Made by a program: the position numbers and the translations under genes
Virus record (IMG/VR): IMGVR_UViG_3300042540_000565
Coordinates: 2,018 to 66,017 of that record
Length of the DNA: 64,000 bases
Direction: 5' to 3' (one strand)
Source: a virus
Lineage: Duplodnaviria; Caudoviricetes
Shown: positions 5,674 to 61,091 of the stretch, in pieces
How positions within the stretch are numbered: the stretch's first letter is position 1
How the letters are laid out: every line of letters starts with the position of its first letter
The notes under the pieces: generated by a model
What the model saw: only the letters and a program-made list of their open reading frames with translations
Databases searched by the model: none
What the model was told of the DNA's origin: nothing

Positions 5674-6435
5674 ATGCCTATCGATTCACAAGATATTGCC
5701 GATGCTATGAGAGCTGCGCTTGACGCAGAAGGAGCTGACTACTATAGTGATACTTTAGATATTATTCCAGCTATTAACGATTCAGTTCGTTGGCTGGAAT
5801 CTGTCGTTAATGCCACTATTGGACAGAAAAAACCAGGAGAAGAAATTTTCCGAGATCTATCTTATGCACATGTTTTCCGTACATCTAACTTTAGCCGACT
5901 AACATTAGCCGCCTTTCCATTCGAAGTATGGACGATAAATTCTGTAGAAGTAGAACCTGAAACATCTACCACCGGAGCCGCTGTTCCTGCTATGACGAAT
6001 GACAAGCAGAGTTATTACCGTCCCGACTTATTTCATGTTAGGGCAACGAAATACACAAAGAGACTTACTCAGGAAGAATGGACATATAACAGACAGAATC
6101 CATTTATGCCAGGATATGACGGAGTAGCTATATGCACAGGGGTACAAGAATACGCCTACTTAAATCCGGTTACTTACAATCCTGACAACACCGTTTCTAT
6201 TGCTTCTGAGATTGAGATTCGCCCTGTTGCAAACAAGGCATTGGTGACAGTTTTCTATTCAAAGAAACCAACTCCCGTAGTCGCTTTGGGAGACCCTATT
6301 GAGTTTCCTGCCACCGTATTTCAATTGATATTAGCCAAGTCGCTTGCTTACATCGCTTACAAACAAGGTGATGGAACTAACCTTTGGGGAGTTACTCAGG
6401 CAGACATTTCATTACTACTTAAAACAATTAACTAA
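5674..6435 (+). CDS. Tail ring/head-tail adaptor protein (crAss-like)
   Basis: 253 aa; N-terminal helix pair DIIPAINDSVRWL and C-terminal PIEFPATVFQLILAKSLAY typical of adaptor/ring proteins; position. Confidence 0.65.
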   Translation: MPIDSQDIADAMRAALDAEGADYYSDTLDIIPAINDSVRWLESVVNATIGQKKPGEEIFRDLSYAHVFRTSNFSRLTLAAFPFEVWTINSVEVEPETSTTGAAVPAMTNDKQSYYRPDLFHVRATKYTKRLTQEEWTYNRQNPFMPGYDGVAICTGVQEYAYLNPVTYNPDNTVSIASEIEIRPVANKALVTVFYSKKPTPVVALGDPIEFPATVFQLILAKSLAYIAYKQGDGTNLWGVTQADISLLLKTIN

Positions 6436-49367: not shown

Positions 49368-50378
49368 TCATAACTCATCCTTTCCGTCATTAAAGCCATA
49401 ATCATAGTCGTAGCCATCGTACAATAGCGTACACTCAACGTAGCGGGTTACTTCCTCCTGAGTCATCTTGAGTAAATCCTCCACGTCATTTCCATCAACA
49501 GCCATTATAGTCTCACCTGACTCATCGGTTACATACACCTCATTGTATCTATAGCTAACCTCTACTCTCAGTCGGTAGTCTTGTATGTCTACATAGAAGT
49601 CCAGGTCGGGTTTGTCCGTATCTACTTTAACAGAAGGCTTACCAAAGTAGTCCTTACACTCCTTACATAGATAACAACCGTCATCAAAACTATATGAGGC
49701 GATATTATCATTACACCACTCGCAATCGGTAGTGTTTTTCTTATAGCTTTTCTCTGCCTTTACAGGGTTCATAGTGTACGGCTCGTACTTGTATGAACCT
49801 CGTGCTATTTTAGTGCCGCCATAATCAAGATACTGACTAACGTACTTGTATGTGTCATTACTAAACCAGTTACCATCTGCCCAGTGTCCTTTACTCTCAC
49901 CAATAATAGACCACTCGTTTTTAGAGTTGAGGAATATTAATTTTGAATAGTCGATAAAGTCAGAGAGTAACTTCCCGATACCTTCGTTATGTTCGAAGCC
50001 TGACGGTAATGACTTAAGGATTGTTTGATTGAATAGGTATGTGTCCGAGAAGTCGGGGCTACTACCTACACCTCCAATGATACCGTTATGTACAAAGCCA
50101 AGGTCATCGTTGACCATAAAGGGATGGCAATTTGTTTCGTTAATCTTACCGTGAGTACTGATACGGAAGTGAAGCACAAACCAAGAAGACTTATTACGCT
50201 TCTTAGCTTCTTTGTAGTGCTTAAAGTATTTCTTGAATGATGTTAACTCCTTGAAGGAAGTTAGTACTCCATTCTCAATATAGAGCATACCTGCTCCGTC
50301 TGAATTGTTTTCCCAACAATTGTTTAATGTCTGCTTAGACAATACATATTTCGGGGTATTTAAAATTGCTATACACAT
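49368..50378 (-). CDS. Class II (Ntn) glutamine amidotransferase with a C-terminal Zn-finger-like region
   Basis: Met-Cys start MCIAI, NSDGAG, HFRISTHG, NCHPF, HNGII, SDT; CEWC...CKEC. Confidence 0.9.
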   Translation of the reverse strand: MCIAILNTPKYVLSKQTLNNCWENNSDGAGMLYIENGVLTSFKELTSFKKYFKHYKEAKKRNKSSWFVLHFRISTHGKINETNCHPFMVNDDLGFVHNGIIGGVGSSPDFSDTYLFNQTILKSLPSGFEHNEGIGKLLSDFIDYSKLIFLNSKNEWSIIGESKGHWADGNWFSNDTYKYVSQYLDYGGTKIARGSYKYEPYTMNPVKAEKSYKKNTTDCEWCNDNIASYSFDDGCYLCKECKDYFGKPSVKVDTDKPDLDFYVDIQDYRLRVEVSYRYNEVYVTDESGETIMAVDGNDVEDLLKMTQEEVTRYVECTLLYDGYDYDYGFNDGKDEL

Positions 50379-50404
50379 GATGTTTTTGTTTTTAAGGTTA
50401 ATGA

Positions 50405-51655
50405 TTAGGCTAATTCTTCTTGAGATTGTTCTGTCACAACAAATGGGTGGATGTTGTTAATGACAAAGTCATTGTACAGGCGGGAGTAATTGACAAACTT
50501 GTTAGCCTTATCAAGAATCTGCTCGGCTGAATAAACCTTTCTTAGATGCTTATGTAATTTAGACTTGCAGTTAACCAAATCTTTCAAGACTTGCGTTTCT
50601 GACTTACAGAATCCCTTACAAATAATTTGCATGAAGGTTAATCTCCATAAAAGGTTGCTCACATTTTTCACAGCAGAAGGTATTCTAAATTCGACTGTCG
50701 TATCACGAACATAGAAGGCAGAGTACTTATCTTTCTTATAAGCCATCTCCTTTTTCTTTTTGGCTTTACAGTATGTCTGCTCCATTCGTTTCTCATACAT
50801 CGCATAGAATAGAGGGAAGTAACCTGATAGCCCCTCGAATATCTCATCAGGGGAATACTCGTTATGTCCGATATGGATATGCCCACCACACGAAGACGTA
50901 TAGTTACCGTTGATAAGATCCTTAACACTTGTGATTGAGTTGGTGATGTACTTTGTGTCCATAAGTGAAAGGATTGGGGATATTAACTCATACCCTGTCG
51001 CATCATCGAGGGAGCCATCTTTTTCCTTACACCAGGCGGTATCTTTGTGTATTTTACCCGCATCGACTCCTACCATCTCGACATCTTCTTTCTCTACCTC
51101 GAAGCCTACAGACCAACCTTCTTTTGTTCGCTTATCCATTCTTCTCATACCGTGATAAGATTCGTTGCCGTTAGGCACGTTATCATTATCATCATCATCA
51201 TCCGACCACATTTCATCGGCAGGTAGATAGTCTTGGTAGTGGTCACAATAGTAGTAGTCGTTATCGTTAGCTATACGTTCAGTCATAAAATAATGGTCGT
51301 GTCGCTGAGACGAACATCTTTCATCATTATCCTCGCTGAAATATCCCTCACTCCATCTTCTACCAACAATTCCCCATATAGAGTTATCACGATAATTAAA
51401 CTCTTGGGTGTCCTCTTGGTACACTACATCGTAATGGGATTGGTCAGCCATTAGGATTGTCTCGTCATCACAGATGATAATAATGTCGTCATCTGGTGAA
51501 CAGAAGTGATTATCTAACAGGCTTACGGCTTGTGCTGTCAAACAATATTCTCCGTCATTGTTACCCTTATCTAATAGGGTGCAGTTTTTTAACAGGGCAT
51601 ACTTGCCTGTGTACATTAGGACAATTTCTGTCCCATTAAGCGTTTCTTTAATCAT
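50405..51655 (-). CDS. Putative amidoligase (COOH-NH2 ligase, Amidoligase_2 family)
   Basis: SYH...VGFEVE...KDGSL...YELISP...SCGGHIHIG...KYSA...TVEFRI. Confidence 0.88.
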   Translation of the reverse strand: MIKETLNGTEIVLMYTGKYALLKNCTLLDKGNNDGEYCLTAQAVSLLDNHFCSPDDDIIIICDDETILMADQSHYDVVYQEDTQEFNYRDNSIWGIVGRRWSEGYFSEDNDERCSSQRHDHYFMTERIANDNDYYYCDHYQDYLPADEMWSDDDDDNDNVPNGNESYHGMRRMDKRTKEGWSVGFEVEKEDVEMVGVDAGKIHKDTAWCKEKDGSLDDATGYELISPILSLMDTKYITNSITSVKDLINGNYTSSCGGHIHIGHNEYSPDEIFEGLSGYFPLFYAMYEKRMEQTYCKAKKKKEMAYKKDKYSAFYVRDTTVEFRIPSAVKNVSNLLWRLTFMQIICKGFCKSETQVLKDLVNCKSKLHKHLRKVYSAEQILDKANKFVNYSRLYNDFVINNIHPFVVTEQSQEELA

Positions 51656-54209: not shown

Positions 54210-54362
54210 TTAATAGTTTACTAAGGTTGATAATAGGACAGTAAATCCGAAAACGATAGATAATGCTTCGCTTGTTACGTCTTCGTTGCCTTTCTTTTTG
54301 TTTATGCTCATCACACCCCATACAAATAGTACAAGGGCGGAAATGTTAATTAATAAAATCAT
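54210..54362 (-). CDS. 50-aa two-TM membrane protein
   Basis: MILLINISALVLFVWGVMSINKKKGNEDVTSEALSIVFGFTVLLSTLVNY* (manual translation). Confidence 0.55.
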   Translation of the reverse strand: MILLINISALVLFVWGVMSINKKKGNEDVTSEALSIVFGFTVLLSTLVNY

Positions 54363-54574
54363 AGTGATGCTAAATAAGGGTTAATAATTCGTTTCTCTAA
54401 TGGGATAATGTTGCGTACAAACGTAGCCCGTTGAACGTCCGTAAAGTTCTCGGTCAGTTCTTGGATCATTTGCTCTCGTGTTAATTTAGGCTCAGGCTTA
54501 ACCACAGGCTTAACCATTGGCTTGATAGGGGCGGAGGCTTTCACCCAGATTTGTTTCGTTAGTCTTGTTCTCAT
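54359..54574 (-). CDS. Basic hypothetical early protein
   Basis: 71 aa with KP/VVKP repeats. Confidence 0.5.
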   Translation of the reverse strand: MRTRLTKQIWVKASAPIKPMVKPVVKPEPKLTREQMIQELTENFTDVQRATFVRNIIPLEKRIINPYLASL

Positions 54575-54646
54575 AATGTTTGGATTTTATAATTTAACTT
54601 GGTTATTTTTGGTTTTTGACCTTGAAAGTTTGAGGAAATCCCTCAA

Positions 54647-54679
54647 TAAAAATAAGGAAGGGGCCGTTGCCCCTTTCCT
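54647..54679 (-). terminator. Intrinsic terminator downstream of the candidate ncRNA
   Basis: AGGAAAGGGGC-AACG-GCCCCTTCCT followed by TATTTTT on the minus strand. Confidence 0.7.
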
Positions 54680-54753
54680 CACTTACCAATTTATTCACTT
54701 GGTTGTGTCGAATGTTGCTTCCGAATCTATCGACTCAGTCACTCACGTTTGTA

Positions 54754-54801
54754 TGGTTCCTGTCGTGTGAATCGAACACACGCTCCCCTACCAAGCCAGG
54801 A
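54754..54801 (-). ncRNA. Mini-tRNA-like element (acceptor stem plus T-arm plus ACCA; no D-stem or anticodon arm)
   Basis: 5'-TCCTGGC TTGGTAGGGGAGC GTGTG TTCGATT CACAC GACAGGA A CCA-3'. Confidence 0.7.
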
Positions 54802-55440
54802 ATAGACCGAATATGGTTTTGTTACCCTGTGAATATATCGAACTGACCGGCTTACTCGTTGCGGAAAGTCTGTTACCTTTCACTTGCTACCATAAGGATG
54901 GGCAGACAATTTTCTGTTGCCTGGCATTCGGATCTTTTTTAGTGAGTGAAACGCTCACGATTTGTTTAACCTCACTAACCTTGAGGAAGTAATTGAAATT
55001 ATATACAACTACGGTTTTGGGGCCTCGTTTGTATATTCTAATGCTCTTAAGTATTACTATAAATCAGATACATTACTTGTTTATCGCACTCGTATGTGCG
55101 CTTCCAAGTCCGCATAACTCTTCCATCTGTTACCTAATAACTATTGGTTAAATTGTGCGTATATTGTTGCTCCCGAATGAAGCAACCAACTAAGTTATAT
55201 ACAATAAATTGTACCTGTCCACGTTTTGACAGTTTTGCCCACTATAAATGGGGTTTGGTTTCGGTTACATTTGTGCCTACTATATTAATAAATATAGGCT
55301 TACAAATTTTTTCGGCTTTAATGAGTTTAAAAATTAATTACTTTGCAGACTGCCAACAAACTATTTTTTACCTAATAATATAAACCAACGGCAAATTATT
55401 AGAATAGATTGAAGGTAATTAACTTTTAAGTTACCTATAC
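54754..55440 (-). ncRNA. Candidate large structured ncRNA ending in the tRNA-like domain; 5' limit uncertain
   Basis: About 1 kb gap with no credible minus-strand ORF, many hairpins and a downstream terminator. Confidence 0.5.
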
Positions 55441-55569
55441 ACCATCAAAAAAACAAGGAACAAATGAAGGTTTAAATATTAGGCTTTAACCTTCTTAAAA
55501 AGCCAATGAAATAGGGCAAAAGTTCAACTTTTACAGGGGTTTATTTGCAACCCCTTAAGCCCTATTTTT

Positions 55570-55995
55570 TTACTTACTTGTTTGCTCTGTTACGATTGTG
55601 TTAATCATCGTGAACACATCATTAATGTTAAATTTTTCTCTCGGCACATCAACACCTCTAATATTTGTAAATTTTCTAAAATACTTGTCGAAATTTTGAA
55701 TTATAAAAAAATCAGTTGAAATTTTAACTTTATTCAGGTTGTTAACTTCTAAAATAATAGCCTTTAAATTTGCTCTAAATTCGAGGCTATTTGTATCGTT
55801 TGTATATTTGCCTGTTCCTTGCACAAATTTTTCAATTCCTGACATCCCTCTTAATTCATTCAAAGCATTTTTATAATCTTGCTTTGCATCCTTAATTAAT
55901 TCACGAACAAATGCCTTTGTAGTGGTTGTTTGTAATTTTGCTTCTCTAACTAAGTTAGCCTTTACGATTGCGGAGTTGTTTTTTAAGTTTTTCAT
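55570..55995 (-). CDS. First early gene, basic hypothetical protein
   Basis: 141 aa directly after the 56079 promoter. Confidence 0.6.
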   Translation of the reverse strand: MKNLKNNSAIVKANLVREAKLQTTTTKAFVRELIKDAKQDYKNALNELRGMSGIEKFVQGTGKYTNDTNSLEFRANLKAIILEVNNLNKVKISTDFFIIQNFDKYFRKFTNIRGVDVPREKFNINDVFTMINTIVTEQTSK

Positions 55996-56071
55996 AATGT
56001 TTAAATTTTAAGGTTATTAATTATTATCAATTATTTGATGAGACAAAGTAAGGTTGTTTAAATTACTTATG

Positions 56072-56079
56072 CAAATATA
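56072..56079 (-). promoter_or_regulatory. Early promoter -7 box TATATTTG
   Basis: TAnnTTTG match at the head of the minus-strand early block. Confidence 0.6.
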
Positions 56080-56189
56080 TTCTAATATATTAGACGAATA
56101 ACTAATAACTGTAGATTAAACTACCTTTTTAATCGATGAATCAAAGATATATATAACTCCCCCTCTCTACATTCCTACGAATGTAGGTA

Positions 56190-56580
56190 GGTAACAACCC
56201 CAATAACAAGGAAGGGAATTCCCTTAATAGATTACTAACTAACTACTGACTGAAGGGAAGTAATAAGATAGGCACCCCATAAACTAAGTAAGCAACCCAA
56301 AGGGAAGGGAAGGGAGGCAACCCCTAAAGGAAGGAAGGAACAACCCCCCCCCTCAATAATTAATAACCCCGAAGGGGGTGGGATTGATCATTGATCTTGG
56401 TTTTTTAAAATGGTAGGGTAGTTTTTTTTGGGATATTACCCCTACCCATAGAAAAGTACTCCCTACCCATCCAATGTTACCCCCCCCCTACCTTTTCGGT
56501 ACTCCCTTACCTGTTTGGGTTACTCTTTTACCGTCCTGATGTCCGGTGGGGGGATAGGACAGGTGGGGTTACCCTATCCC
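56190..56580. repeat. Low-complexity purine/pyrimidine-tract repeats at the strand-divergence point
   Basis: GCAACCC..AAAGG(G)AAGG(G)AAGG(G)A twice (56292-56341); TAC(Y)nTACC iterations and C-tracts at 56437-56532. Confidence 0.6.
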
Positions 56581-56736
56581 TTATAGAAGATATAGAAGAT
56601 TATCAGAAGATGGTGGAATTTGTAAGTTGCTGAGTGGGTGGATTGTTTTTTAGGCAAAGTATCAAGATTTGATAGTTTTGAAACTGAAAAGTAAAAGAAA
56701 GTGATAGTTTTAGGGTTGGGAACTAAATAAAAGTTA

Positions 56737-56744
56737 TACTTTTG
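56737..56744 (+). promoter_or_regulatory. -7 box TACTTTTG upstream of the tRNA cluster
   Basis: TAnnTTTG match. Confidence 0.45.
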
Positions 56745-56863
56745 TGGTATTATGAAGCATGCAACAAATATTCTGTGGTCCTTCCGGTAAGGACTCCCGT
56801 GAATAGGATGGTTAGCGCCATGAATAAGCGGGTTTAACGGGCTTTGGTGGGTTTTATATTTAT

Positions 56864-56936
56864 GGCGGGGTAGAGAAGTGGTCATCTCACTGGTCTCATA
56901 AGTCGGCAATCGCAAGTTCGAATCTTGCCCCCGCTA
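56864..56936 (+). tRNA. tRNA with CAT anticodon (Met, initiator-like body)
   Basis: Acceptor GGCGGGG/CCCCGCT, D-stem GAGA/TCTC, anticodon loop CTCATAA, T-arm GCAAG-TTCGAAT-CTTGC; CCA not encoded. Confidence 0.85.
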
Positions 56937-56980
56937 CGAAAGTCCAACCATGAAATAAAAACTCAGTGGCTCTGGCGGTT

Positions 56981-57070
56981 TGTGTAGTGCCGCAGATGGT
57001 TAGCGGATGGGGCCTTGTATGAAATTGGCAAGCAACCCTGCAGTCGTTGGTTCGATTCCAACCTACACAA
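56981..57070 (+). ncRNA. tRNA-like RNA with an expanded anticodon arm
   Basis: Perfect acceptor TGTGTAG/CTACACA, D-arm CCGC/GCGG, T-arm GTTGG-TTCGATT-CCAAC, but 23 nt where the 7-nt anticodon loop should be. Confidence 0.7.
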
Positions 57071-57091
57071 TAATTAGTTCTTTAAACGTGT

Positions 57092-57160
57092 TGTGGGTAT
57101 TGGCTATAAACGTCAGTCTCGAAAGGATTATCTATCGAAGGTAGATAGTGCCCACTACCA
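57092..57160 (+). ncRNA. Degenerate cloverleaf ending in ACCA
   Basis: GTGGGTA/TGCCCAC stem, three internal hairpins and a 3' ACCA; lacks T- and D-loop consensus. Confidence 0.4.
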
Positions 57161-57166
57161 AATTAA

Positions 57167-57302
57167 GCATCCGGCTTGTTGCTTTGACCCCCTGAATCGG
57201 ATAACTGGGGTTCCTGAACCTGGGATGGAAATGAGTGGCAAAACAATTGTCAGACACAGGTAAAATCGTGACAGTCGGGAAAGACCGACCCCTTTCGGGG
57301 GA
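57167..57302 (+). ncRNA. Candidate structured ncRNA (hairpin series)
   Basis: CATCC/GGATG, GACCCC/GGGGTT, TGTCA/TGACA, GTCGG-GAAAGA-CCGAC, CCCC-TTTC-GGGG. Confidence 0.4.
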
Positions 57303-57382
57303 TTGATTAGTAACCTATAAATTAATAAATATGGAAAAGAAGAAAGATGGTTCATCCGCAAAAAGTAAGACGGGGGTTCCAA

Positions 57383-57943
57383 ATGAGTAATAAAGATAAA
57401 GTCACTCCTAAAAAGGAGGAGGTAAAGGTTCCCATCTACGAAGTTTTCGACAAGGATTATAATAAGGTAGCTGTATGCTTTGATGAAAAAATCTCGGTTG
57501 TAGTGGGTAACTTCCTAAACAATGTTTACGAAGGAGGTGTTCTTCTTGCTCCCTATCCACCGATGGGTAAAAACTTTTTCATCAATAGAAGGACGGGAGA
57601 AGTGTTCTTGTATGATGGCACTAACTATGCTTGTATTGAAAAGCAAATTGAACAGTCTAAGAAAATACCCTCAGGCACTTGGTTACAAAAACAAGAAGAG
57701 GAACTTCTTGCCAGTCTGAAAAAGGAACAGGATGATATGTGGGGACGTTCCCACGACCTATTGATGGATAAGCTTAACGGCTTGTATCCTGAAAAGGAAA
57801 ATAAGGATTTAGTGCTACGTACCCAACTTCCATCCGACCAACAGGTAAGGGATTGGATTAAAGACAATGAGGAGCTATTCGGATTTGACCAAAACACAAA
57901 ACTAACTATCCTCGCCTTTATGGGGTGGGTTAAAAGCAGATGA
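57383..57943 (+). CDS. Hypothetical protein
   Basis: Likely start is MSNKDK at 57383 within the tracked ORF 57347-57943. Confidence 0.5.
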   Translation: MSNKDKVTPKKEEVKVPIYEVFDKDYNKVAVCFDEKISVVVGNFLNNVYEGGVLLAPYPPMGKNFFINRRTGEVFLYDGTNYACIEKQIEQSKKIPSGTWLQKQEEELLASLKKEQDDMWGRSHDLLMDKLNGLYPEKENKDLVLRTQLPSDQQVRDWIKDNEELFGFDQNTKLTILAFMGWVKSR

Positions 57944-58690: not shown

Positions 58691-59079
58691 AAGTAATATT
58701 ATTTTTAGATGACTTTCGAAACCCCTTCAAAGAAGGTAGGGTTCACCTTCCCGTAAAGGGGGAGGAAGAAGAGTCTGTGGTGTGGGTAAAAACATTCCAA
58801 CAGTTCAAAAGCTGGATAGAAGAAAATGGATTGCCTGATCATATATGCTTAGACCACGACCTACATAAAGAACACTATCACAAGGATATGTACAAAGGAA
58901 TGGCGGCTTATAATAAACACTACCAAACCTTTGAACATAAAACAGGCAGGGATGCTGCTATGTGGCTTATCAAATATTGTAGTGATGAAAAAAAGCCCGT
59001 CCCCAAATGGACAGTCCACTCATCTAATCCTGTGGGGAAAGAGAATATAAAAATGCTACTTAAAGCCTTTACAAAATAA
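58687..59079 (+). CDS. Cyclic-phosphate-processing receiver domain protein
   Basis: LFLDDFRNP...VWVKT...ICLDHDL...TGRDAAMWL...VHSSNPVGKENI, the characteristic motif set of this receiver-like family. Confidence 0.8.
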   Translation: MKVILFLDDFRNPFKEGRVHLPVKGEEEESVVWVKTFQQFKSWIEENGLPDHICLDHDLHKEHYHKDMYKGMAAYNKHYQTFEHKTGRDAAMWLIKYCSDEKKPVPKWTVHSSNPVGKENIKMLLKAFTK

Positions 59080-61091
59080 TGCCCATAGAAACCTCAGAAT
59101 GGAAGATTAATAAACATCCTCTGGATTACGATCCGGAACTAATATCGTGGATAAAAAAAATCAATATCGATTTTAGAAAAAGAGGCAAGTATAAACCATT
59201 CGAACTATACTGTAAACAAGCCCAGGAGTGGGCGGATGACCCGTTCACATTGGCGGATTGTAAGGACTATGACGAACAAGTATGGTGGCTAAAAAGAAAC
59301 CATATCCGCTGTAAAGAAAATACACTCTTCTATGCCAATCAATATGGCGTTCTAAAGGATGGTTCTGGAGAAGGCGGTATCACAAAGTTCGAGTCTTGGG
59401 AAGGTCAAAAGATTGTCCTCCACCTTCTCGATAGAGGATACTCAACCATGATCGGTAAGGGAAGGCAGTTTGGTTTCACCTCCGTAATGGGGATATTCGC
59501 TAATAAAAAGATAAACTTCAACAAAAACTTATTCATAAAATTCGTTACCCATAACGCAGATAAAGGTGTCGAAATATTCTTGGATAAAATCAAATGGCCA
59601 TTCGGTCAGATACCCGATGCTATCCGTCACCACGTAGTTAACGATAGAGATAACCTACTAAAGCTGGGAGAGAAAGAAGAGAAAGGTAAAACACGAGGGA
59701 TGGGTTCGTCCGTTAAGGTGGATACCCCCGCTGTAGATGCCATCAATGGTGGTTCACCGGATATTGTAATGATTGATGAGATTGGTCTATTTGATATCTT
59801 CGGAACAATGATGCGTGAGGGTAGACCGACAATGTTTAGGTACGACCCCGTACTGAAAAAGCAAACTATGGTTAGACAGCTAATAGCTTGGGGAACGGGA
59901 GGGCAGATGGGAATGGGAGCCACCGCCTTTGAGGAGGAGTTTATGGCAGCCATCCATTCATTTAATGAAGGTAATCTTAGCTACGGTATCATCCCAATAT
60001 TCTTCAATGCCTTTGCTCGTGAAGGTTTGACACAAGAAATGTTCGATGCTGAAAAAGCAAAATACTATAGCGTTCAAGGTAGAGAAGGAGAGATAGCCAG
60101 GGTTCAGTTCCACCAACATTACCCTATGTCTATTGAGGATATGTTCCTGCGTACCGCATCTACACTCGTTCCTGTCGGAGAGATAAATAAAAAAATGCAG
60201 GTCATCTATAACATGGACCCTAAGCCTAAGCATGGATATTTTGAACCGATAATGAATAATCAGGATCAGATTATCGGATGTAAGTTTGTGCCCGTTGGTG
60301 ATGATTCAAATATGATTGCCCCCGTTACTATTATCGAAGAACCGGAGGATGGCTATGACCATAGATACTACCAAGGTACTGACCCCATAAGCTCGGAATC
60401 GGGACACTCAAAGATGGGGTCCGCAATTATCGATGCCCAAAAAATGTCTGTTTCTGCCTTCGTAAACTTTAGAGATAAGGATCTAAAATATGTATTTGGG
60501 CAAGTATTAATGCTCGGATTGTATTATCGTGGCGGAACAAACCCCTGTGCGATGGAACTTACAGAGGCAAATATTGGTGACTTCTATTTCAATTTCAAGA
60601 AGGATAATGGATACGAAACTTCCTTCACTCCTCAACGTGCCCTACCGGCTTTCCTCCAAATTAATACCCAAAAATGGTGGGGTATAAGTAACAAGGTGCA
60701 GACTAAAGGGAAGATTATAACCAAGCTTTCGGAGCTTATAGATGGCTACGGTGATAACATTATGTGCCTTCCATTTTGGGTGCAACTAAAGACCTTCGTG
60801 GAGAAATCTCTTGTTCCTAAAAATGGTACACAGACACAGAATACCGGAAGGCTTACAAGCTACCAAGCTGCAGATTTGAGAAGGGATTATGATGACATGA
60901 TCTTCGGAATCGTATATGCCTACATAAATGTACTGGCTTATCAAAGGTTTGAACCCGTTAGTGTTGGATCTTCAATACAAGGAAGCGGTAAAACAATGGT
61001 CAAGTATATGCAGAACGCACAAACTGGATGGGCAAGAAGACGCTGTTTAGTAGATAGTAAAGGAAAAATATTGAAAATGGGCGTAACTTAA
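59079..61091 (+). CDS. terL: Terminase large subunit
   Basis: Walker A GKGRQFGFTS, Walker B VMIDEIG, RNase H-like YQGTDP...SKMGS...YDD. Confidence 0.92.
   Translation: MPIETSEWKINKHPLDYDPELISWIKKINIDFRKRGKYKPFELYCKQAQEWADDPFTLADCKDYDEQVWWLKRNHIRCKENTLFYANQYGVLKDGSGEGGITKFESWEGQKIVLHLLDRGYSTMIGKGRQFGFTSVMGIFANKKINFNKNLFIKFVTHNADKGVEIFLDKIKWPFGQIPDAIRHHVVNDRDNLLKLGEKEEKGKTRGMGSSVKVDTPAVDAINGGSPDIVMIDEIGLFDIFGTMMREGRPTMFRYDPVLKKQTMVRQLIAWGTGGQMGMGATAFEEEFMAAIHSFNEGNLSYGIIPIFFNAFAREGLTQEMFDAEKAKYYSVQGREGEIARVQFHQHYPMSIEDMFLRTASTLVPVGEINKKMQVIYNMDPKPKHGYFEPIMNNQDQIIGCKFVPVGDDSNMIAPVTIIEEPEDGYDHRYYQGTDPISSESGHSKMGSAIIDAQKMSVSAFVNFRDKDLKYVFGQVLMLGLYYRGGTNPCAMELTEANIGDFYFNFKKDNGYETSFTPQRALPAFLQINTQKWWGISNKVQTKGKIITKLSELIDGYGDNIMCLPFWVQLKTFVEKSLVPKNGTQTQNTGRLTSYQAADLRRDYDDMIFGIVYAYINVLAYQRFEPVSVGSSIQGSGKTMVKYMQNAQTGWARRRCLVDSKGKILKMGVT

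Follow-up and report, generated by a model that had tools for sequence, protein, structure and literature searches.

A tRNA-shaped gene in a metagenomic phage carries, in the place of the anticodon loop, a 23-nt hairpin that is also conserved in a diverged phage lineage, where it lies outside any tRNA. On this comparison, the gene is more likely to be a carrier for a functional hairpin than to decode, to hold an intron or to be dead. We give about an even chance to the specific proposal that the gene specifies a non-decoding tRNA-shaped RNA of which the hairpin module would be the selected, functional part; with the same measured confidence, the tRNA body may be seen as a scaffold or processing handle for the hairpin. 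tRNA-like RNAs and insert-bearing phage tRNAs are already known kinds. What is new is comparative evidence that points to the insert, rather than the tRNA, as the conserved element.

The gene and its genomic setting

We analyzed a 64,000-nt stretch of the phage genome (the window; G+C content about 37%), in which replication and early genes are grouped in a leftward block. The large terminase gene (TerL) is followed by a long plus-strand series of large ORFs, which are taken to be structural genes. The primase-helicase is 56% identical to homologues in Flavobacterium phages over 99% of its length. The consensus of the Bacteroidota -7 promoter box is TAnnTTTG, and a box of this form precedes the tRNA genes. 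For these two reasons the host is taken to be a Bacteroidota-type bacterium and not an archaeon. Terminase relatives were gathered from IMG/VR and metagenomes (160 loci, numbered with the prefix L). L001 is nearly identical to the window (terminase 99%, DNA 96.7%), and the terminases of L081 and L082 are 65% identical to that of the window. The features relevant here are as follows.

44-2284: portal gene
56737-56744, plus strand: candidate Bacteroidota-type -7 promoter box TACTTTTG, which would head the rightward operon
56757-57937, plus strand: 1.18-kb block (leader, both tRNA genes, structured spacer, ORF198), absent from L001 by blastn and reading of the junction
56777-56832, plus strand: conserved structured leader, with the hairpin GGUCCUU-CCGGU-AAGGACU followed by a CCCG/CGGG stem
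56864-56937, plus strand: tRNA(CAU), Met or (if lysidine-modified) Ile2; ARAGORN, Rfam 59.6 bits, homologue at L081:585-658
56981-57070, plus strand: tRNA-shaped gene, discriminator A, no encoded CCA; Rfam RF00005, RNAfold, ARAGORN -i and direct reading
57008-57040, plus strand: whole anticodon arm of the tRNA-shaped gene, outer stem UGGGG/CCCUG around the 23-nt module; Rfam alignment and direct reading
57013-57035, plus strand: conserved hairpin module (bulged C, stem CUUGU/GCAAG, loop AUGAAAUUG, bulge CAA); comparison with L081/L082
57347-57943, plus strand: ORF198, a near-orphan protein; gene callers start at M13, which gives 186 aa
58687-59079: protein with a stand-alone cRec domain (PF20274, E 9e-22), flanked by a small ORF and the large terminase
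59079-61091: large terminase (TerL), a weak match in the Pfam/PHROG scan

Within the head of the packaging/late operon, the tRNA-shaped gene is on the sense strand, 240 nt 3' of the promoter-like box and 43 nt 3' of the tRNA(CAU) gene on the same strand. The box is found at the same place in L001 (TACTTTTG) and L081 (TATGTTTG). Across the window its motif occurs 84 times against 79 expected and is thus not enriched, so that the promoter call is one of position and conservation only.

The acceptor stem has seven of seven pairs (TGTGTAG, 56981-56987, with CTACACA, 57063-57069) and is followed by U8 and G9, a D arm at 56990-57006 (CCGC-AGATGGTTA-GCGG, or CCGC-AGAUGGUUA-GCGG as RNA) and A26. The variable loop is CAGTC (5 nt), the T arm at 57046-57062 reads GTTGG-TTCGATT-CCAAC, and the discriminator is A57070. 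All core nucleotides are there (U8, A14, G15-C48, G18G19, A21, G46, U54U55C56, A58 and G53-C61). Against RF00005 the gene scores 44.4 bits (E 5.5e-8 in a 1-kb search), with a gathering score of 29, and by this cloverleaf match it belongs structurally to the tRNA family. Both default ARAGORN and the default Rfam filters overlook it; the RF00005 match appears once the search is small enough to pass the filters.

The anticodon arm is lengthened by 16 extra bases, and the RF00005 alignment accordingly places a 22-nt stretch at a spot where the model expects 6. The outer stem, TGGGG (57008-57012) with CCCTG (57036-57040), consists of two G.U and three G-C pairs and encloses 23 nt. In the RNAfold minimum-energy fold, the cloverleaf is continued by an inner helix CUUGU/GCAAG with a 9-nt loop. 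The fold energy is ordinary relative to shuffled sequences (z -0.53), so that energy by itself is no proof of the structure. As encoded, the arm does not present the 5-bp stem, 7-nt loop, U33 and purine 37 that together mark a decoding tRNA. A preliminary description made from the DNA letters had claimed perfect acceptor, D and T arms and an extended anticodon arm with a second helix CTTGT/GCAAG under a loop of about 9 nt; direct reading bears out both claims, together with the RF00005 score for the three arms and RNAfold for the fourth.

The leader upstream of the two tRNA genes is likewise structured. Its CCCG/CGGG stem encloses two GAAUA(G/A) internal loops flanking AUGG/CCAU, and collinear exact blocks of 8-9 nt are held in common with L081:510-559, where the outer stem changes to ACGG/CCGU with pairing kept. 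A search of IMG/VR with the leader pattern gave 0 matches. A GUGAAUA(G/A) motif adjoins tRNA(CAU) at the packaging operon head in four diverged phages of this terminase family (window 56796-56832, L081:529-565, L138:3627-3634 and L062 at about 4095). The window and L081 each have two copies, which form the symmetric internal loops of a stem with compensatory changes.

Other parts of the window are recorded here for completeness. Adjacent genes for an amidoligase (PF12224) and a class-II glutamine amidotransferase-like protein lie in the early region (49368-51655, minus strand) and recall phage base- or peptide-modification modules. About 1 kb at the head of the leftward region (54575-55569) has no credible ORF, and Rfam gave nothing in this gap at E up to 1.

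Conservation of the hairpin module

The counterpart of the module in L081 lies at 1142-1164 and reads C-UCCGU-AUGAAAUUG-GCGGA-CAA, as compared with C-CUUGU-AUGAAAUUG-GCAAG-CAA in the window; it is also present in L082. The bulged C, the loop, the U.G closing pair and the CAA are the same, and an exact core of 13 nt (GTATGAAATTGGC) is common to the window and L081/L082 in addition to the C and the CAA. All 13 unpaired bases of the module are identical. The 5-bp stem, of which U.G is the last pair, has changed around them: when the two pairs that close the module are counted with the inner stem, five of seven pairs are altered on both sides (three of the five inner pairs and both closing pairs). 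In the covariation count, 100% of the cells are paired, as against 29-57% in slid controls; the count stands for one pairwise comparison, between the two independent lineages that carry the module. The conserved U.G pair would read as an A.C mismatch on the opposite strand, which favors an RNA from the plus strand.

A covariance model built from L081 and L082 only (R2) was searched on both strands of the window (128 kb). Its top match was exactly 57013-57035 (21.5 bits, E 4.4e-4). As the window sequence did not enter this model, the match is an independent measure and not a fit by construction.

The surroundings of the module differ between the lineages. The overall layout of L081 and L082 is that of the window, with the box TATGTTTG, a structured leader homologous to that of the window, tRNA(CAU), about 600 nt of non-coding sequence, ORFs, HNH and TerL, and the L081 module is syntenic, downstream of tRNA(CAU) and ahead of the ORFs that precede HNH and TerL. 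There it is carried by an ordinary stem (UC/GA, then UCCCCU/AGGGGA), with another hairpin after it. At the L081 module, Rfam gives only the tRNA-Met of the region and ARAGORN -i nothing. Alignments of the module flanks with the tRNA body of the window are no better than those of shuffled sequences (z about 0), on which ground we rejected the possibility that L081 holds a decayed or permuted copy of the body. A few 8-mers, for example TTGTGTAG, recur in L081 in shuffled order. With the module kept and its scaffold exchanged, it is the hairpin that counts as the conserved unit; the tRNA body is represented by one sequence from one lineage.

The non-coding stretch that follows the tRNA genes looks like a modular structured RNA. 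Window positions 57071-57335 and L081:659-1255 contain exact blocks of 8-13 nt in shuffled order (TAGTTCTTTAA, GCTATAAACG, AAACTCAGT, GATTAGTAACCT), and the two stretches have 40 8-mers in common, as compared with about 10 in shuffles. The L081 stretch also contains a perfect terminator-like hairpin at 1057-1113.

In L001, the junction at 1823-1826 fuses the promoter-like box straight to the HNH gene, and there are no tRNA genes and no ORF198. As a tRNA, a non-coding region and an ORF198 homologue are found in L081, the 1.18-kb block is most likely ancestral to the clade and was deleted in L001. Its absence from so close a relative indicates that the block is accessory and dispensable. ORF198 and the RNA block are present or absent together. 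The ORF198 protein has no Pfam or PHROG match, no useful Atlas match and no recognizable fold; its homologues form two clusters only, a search for relatives in IMG/VR gave none, and its C-terminal 36 aa are homologous to L081:1917-2459 (E 3e-12). A 19-codon upstream ORF (MEKKKDGSSAKSKTGVPNE) at 57331-57390 overlaps the likely true start of ORF198, and its Lys-rich beginning together with the preceding 30 nt has 81% DNA identity to the start of an 88-aa ORF of L081 (L081:1216-1295).

Searches for further copies of the gene and the module were conducted at several levels. IMG/VR contained 0 matches to the exact anticodon-arm pattern as a probe for whole-gene homologues and 0 to a pattern of T arm plus acceptor, hence no insert-free allele, and blastn against 50,697 phage records returned generic T arms only. 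GTATGAAATTGGCNNNCAA has 24 matches in IMG/VR, about the chance number by a rough estimate, all in unrelated and mostly coding contexts and one with a chance stem. CNNNGTATGAAATTGGCNNNCAA has 58 matches in 185,579 GTDB genomes, again about chance by a rough estimate; they are taxonomically scattered, and a stem is present in eight. Chance frequency and scatter give no sign that the module mimics a host RNA. Covariance model R1, run on the 160 terminase-relative loci, found nothing credible (best other match 19.3 bits, in L043), and the remaining 157 related loci did not yield the module. Near the gene, no site complementary to the loop is conserved in both phages.

An invariant loop and bulges on a stem that is free to change but remains paired are the signature of operator hairpins, which argues for reading the module as a recognition hairpin. 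In the mechanism that we envisage, host tRNA-processing enzymes would release the tRNA-shaped RNA from a late/packaging leader transcript, with RNase P cutting the 5' end and the 3' end being trimmed and supplied with CCA. The tRNA fold would lend stability, as in engineered 'tRNA scaffold' RNAs, and loop and bulges would form a putative recognition site for a protein or RNA partner.

Alternative readings of the gene

That the gene is a decoding tRNA whose insert is removed by proteins, like the 'enigmatic introns' of Lak megaphage tRNAs, is distinctly unlikely. ARAGORN -i calls a tRNA-Thr(UGU) with U33 and A37, the stem GGGGC/ACCCU, the loop CUUGUAU and a 14-nt insert (GAAAUUGGCAAGCA, at 38/39); when the cut is moved by one base, a 14-nt insert (UGAAAUUGGCAAGC) falls at the canonical 37/38 position and leaves the loop CUUGUAA, the loop after excision thus being CUUGUA(A/U). 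Removal of 16 nt would instead give a Gln-like UUG tRNA. As in pre-tRNAs spliced by proteins, a 3-nt bulge holds the 3' boundary, and the insert pairs with the CUUG of the anticodon loop. The codon usage of the phage suits Thr(UGU) and Gln(UUG) alike (ACA is the commonest Thr codon, with 41%, and CAA makes up 73% of Gln codons) and does not discriminate between the registers. The Thr register comes at a cost: 31-39 is a C.A mismatch, position 26 is filled by two bases and the variable loop grows to 6 nt, or, put otherwise, the anticodon stem is six pairs long. The acceptor pairs U1-A72/G2-C71 would not fit the identity set of E. coli ThrRS. In the canonical register the loop starts with C32 C33, every excision leaves C33 or A33, and the 16-nt excision gives U37 and never U33. 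Excision therefore yields a canonical mature tRNA in neither register. A bulge-helix-bulge is not formed either, as there is a single 3-nt bulge (CAA) with an unpaired C opposite, 5 bp and a 9-nt loop. The host, as judged from the primase-helicase, is bacterial; scanning of ORFs with Pfam and PHROGs turned up neither a splicing endonuclease nor an RNA ligase nor a polynucleotide kinase among them, which also leaves the earlier idea of a substrate for cut-and-ligate maturation without its enzymes; and in L081 the 'intron' is conserved outside any tRNA. Two observations nevertheless keep an intron-type reading alive for this phage group. Unexplained tRNA introns occur in Lak phages of Prevotella, a member of Bacteroidota (PMC6784885), and L029 (TerL 46% identical; the same contig as L098) has on its minus strand at 6113-6204 a tRNA(UCA) with 52.6 bits on RF00005, U33, A37 and a clean 18-nt insert exactly at 37/38. 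This gene could be either a tRNA of the opal-suppressor or Trp type that has a short 'intron' or a further look-alike of a tRNA. The preliminary description had stated that after a 16-nt excision at 37/38 the loop would lack U33 and have a pyrimidine as base 37, which is correct for the canonical register. Its further verdict that a simple intron is unlikely holds for that register but had left the shifted ARAGORN register, with U33 and A37, unconsidered; its broader view of a probably non-decoding gene without a simple intron is supported, as both registers are defective and the hairpin is conserved outside a tRNA in a relative.

The other alternatives keep the tRNA out of decoding in different ways. 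It is unlikely, if more deserving of attention, that the gene is a disabled tRNA, with recombination having dropped a pre-existing leader hairpin into the anticodon loop. The body would then be a recent relic, and any function would be that of the hairpin alone, acting in cis within its transcript or signalling processing or termination. This reading agrees with the occurrence of the tRNA body in one lineage only, with the ability of L081 to manage without it, with the dispensability of the whole block in L001 and with the short conserved blocks that are shuffled between the non-coding regions of window and L081, suggesting frequent rearrangement. It does not sit well with a body that is undecayed (seven of seven acceptor pairs, perfect D and T arms, every tertiary nucleotide) or with a hairpin that continues the anticodon stem coaxially, an unlikely product of random and then tolerated recombination. 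The pseudogene with random decay, which the preliminary description had named as its own counter-case, is contradicted for the hairpin by conservation and compensatory changes; for the body, the comparison is confined to one lineage. Very improbable is a decoy for tRNA-targeting defences (PrrC, RloC, VapC or Schlafen-type), or an RNA-end-healing module formed together with cRec. Phage tRNAs have been reported to counteract anticodon nucleases (PMC10264068), and the cRec gene, of a family predicted to process 2',3'-cyclic phosphate ends (PMC7824862), lies 1.6 kb downstream of the tRNA-shaped gene. A decoy, however, must resemble the anticodon loop of its target, and here a 9-nt loop sits on a double-length arm. 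The decoy for anticodon nucleases, synthetases or T-box-like sensors that had been proposed earlier would need the tRNA shape and is not supported, as the hairpin occurs in L081 and L082 with no tRNA body around it. Among the scanned ORFs, neither an RNA ligase nor a kinase for end healing was found. L001 has cRec itself but no tRNA-like gene, and L081 has the hairpin but no cRec. cRec thus does not co-occur with the hairpin, and a link between cRec and the tRNA-shaped gene was rejected on this opposite pattern. It is also quite improbable, to a lesser degree than the decoy, that the hairpin is an active recognition element working on tRNA, either as a codon mimic or as the cassette of a protein-dependent mini-intron. 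As a codon mimic, the loop sequence 5'-UAUGA-3' would be complementary to positions 33-37 (UCAUA) of a CAU anticodon loop and could target the co-transcribed tRNA(CAU) and the host initiator tRNA, as a trans-acting, T-box-like clamp on a tRNA body. As a mini-intron, the hairpin would be a recognition and cleavage cassette able to sit in different RNAs. The support for either form consists of the invariant loop and bulges; if true, phages would have an RNA device of a new kind.

In L081, the position that corresponds to the cRec gene is taken by a gene for a RepL-like winged-helix protein.

Several further candidates were rejected. A group I intron does not agree with an insert of 14-16 nt, the ribozyme core being about 200 nt or more, and no Rfam intron match was found in 56500-57500 at E up to 10. 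An intron of the Lak type was set aside as no insert-free allele turned up in IMG/VR, L001 lacks the whole gene, and removal of the insert fails to restore a normal arm. A tmRNA would combine the alanine identity pair G3.U70 with a tag reading frame closed by a stop; here the pair at 3-70 is U-A, and ARAGORN calls none. The frame that opens at the AUG of the loop runs through the T arm. A small ORF starting there has only MKLA in common with L081, beyond which conservation ceases, and coding would leave the conservation of the C and the CAA unexplained. GOLLD and ROOL models gave no match at E up to 10 in window 56500-57500 or L081 400-1400, or at E up to 1 in window 54300-56600.

Relation to known RNAs

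When the anticodon arm of a phage tRNA gene is odd, gene finders usually pass over the gene, or it is called a pseudogene or an intron. The comparative evidence points to a third option, namely that nature may use a tRNA body to carry an unrelated functional hairpin. If this is true, such genes of Bacteroidota phages would supply new small modules for RNA-protein or RNA-RNA recognition, and some 'tRNA introns' of metagenomic phages would deserve re-examination. The case lends itself to direct tests, the hairpin being small and well delimited.

The protein-spliced introns of archaea and eukaryotes have a bulge-helix-bulge, with two 3-nt bulges on opposite strands and a 4-bp helix between them, or else a relaxed form of it that goes with a matching endonuclease. 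The gene described here resembles them in the site beside the anticodon, in the pairing of four anticodon-loop bases with the 3' portion of the insert and in the 3-nt bulge at the 3' boundary. It differs in having an extra unpaired C and no second 3-nt bulge 4 bp away, and in its bacterial host and non-canonical product, and no endonuclease gene was found among the ORFs scanned.

The lambda boxB/N, MS2 and PP7 coat operators and HIV TAR all have invariant loops or bulges on a free but paired stem. The module has the same design, and like them it lies in the leader of a long operon, the likeness being one of design, with no sequence similarity to any of the four. Plant-virus TLS, MHV68 vtRNAs, mascRNA and bacterial YrlA similarly use a tRNA fold for processing, stability or recognition without decoding. 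They have no normal D/T core or show other topologies, whereas here the canonical body is complete and the anticodon arm alone differs.

The Lak megaphages of Prevotella have 'enigmatic' tRNA introns (Devoto et al., 2019; PMC6784885) and share with the present phage a Bacteroidota-type host, an anticodon loop broken by a short conserved sequence and the absence of a ribozyme and of known splicing machinery. In Lak phages, however, alleles that lack the intron are known and a normal tRNA results from excision; here the searches gave no insert-free allele, excision leaves an abnormal anticodon arm, and the insert also occurs outside a tRNA. The design matches that of the engineered 'tRNA scaffold' (Ponchon and Dardel; PMC3753655), which has a hairpin instead of the anticodon loop; the cell folds, trims and protects this chimera as it does a tRNA. 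In both cases a foreign hairpin continues the anticodon stem while acceptor, D and T arms are kept. Those scaffolds are laboratory constructs; the gene described here is natural and phage-encoded, its insert is conserved between phage lineages, and its RNA would probably be processed and stabilized in a like manner.
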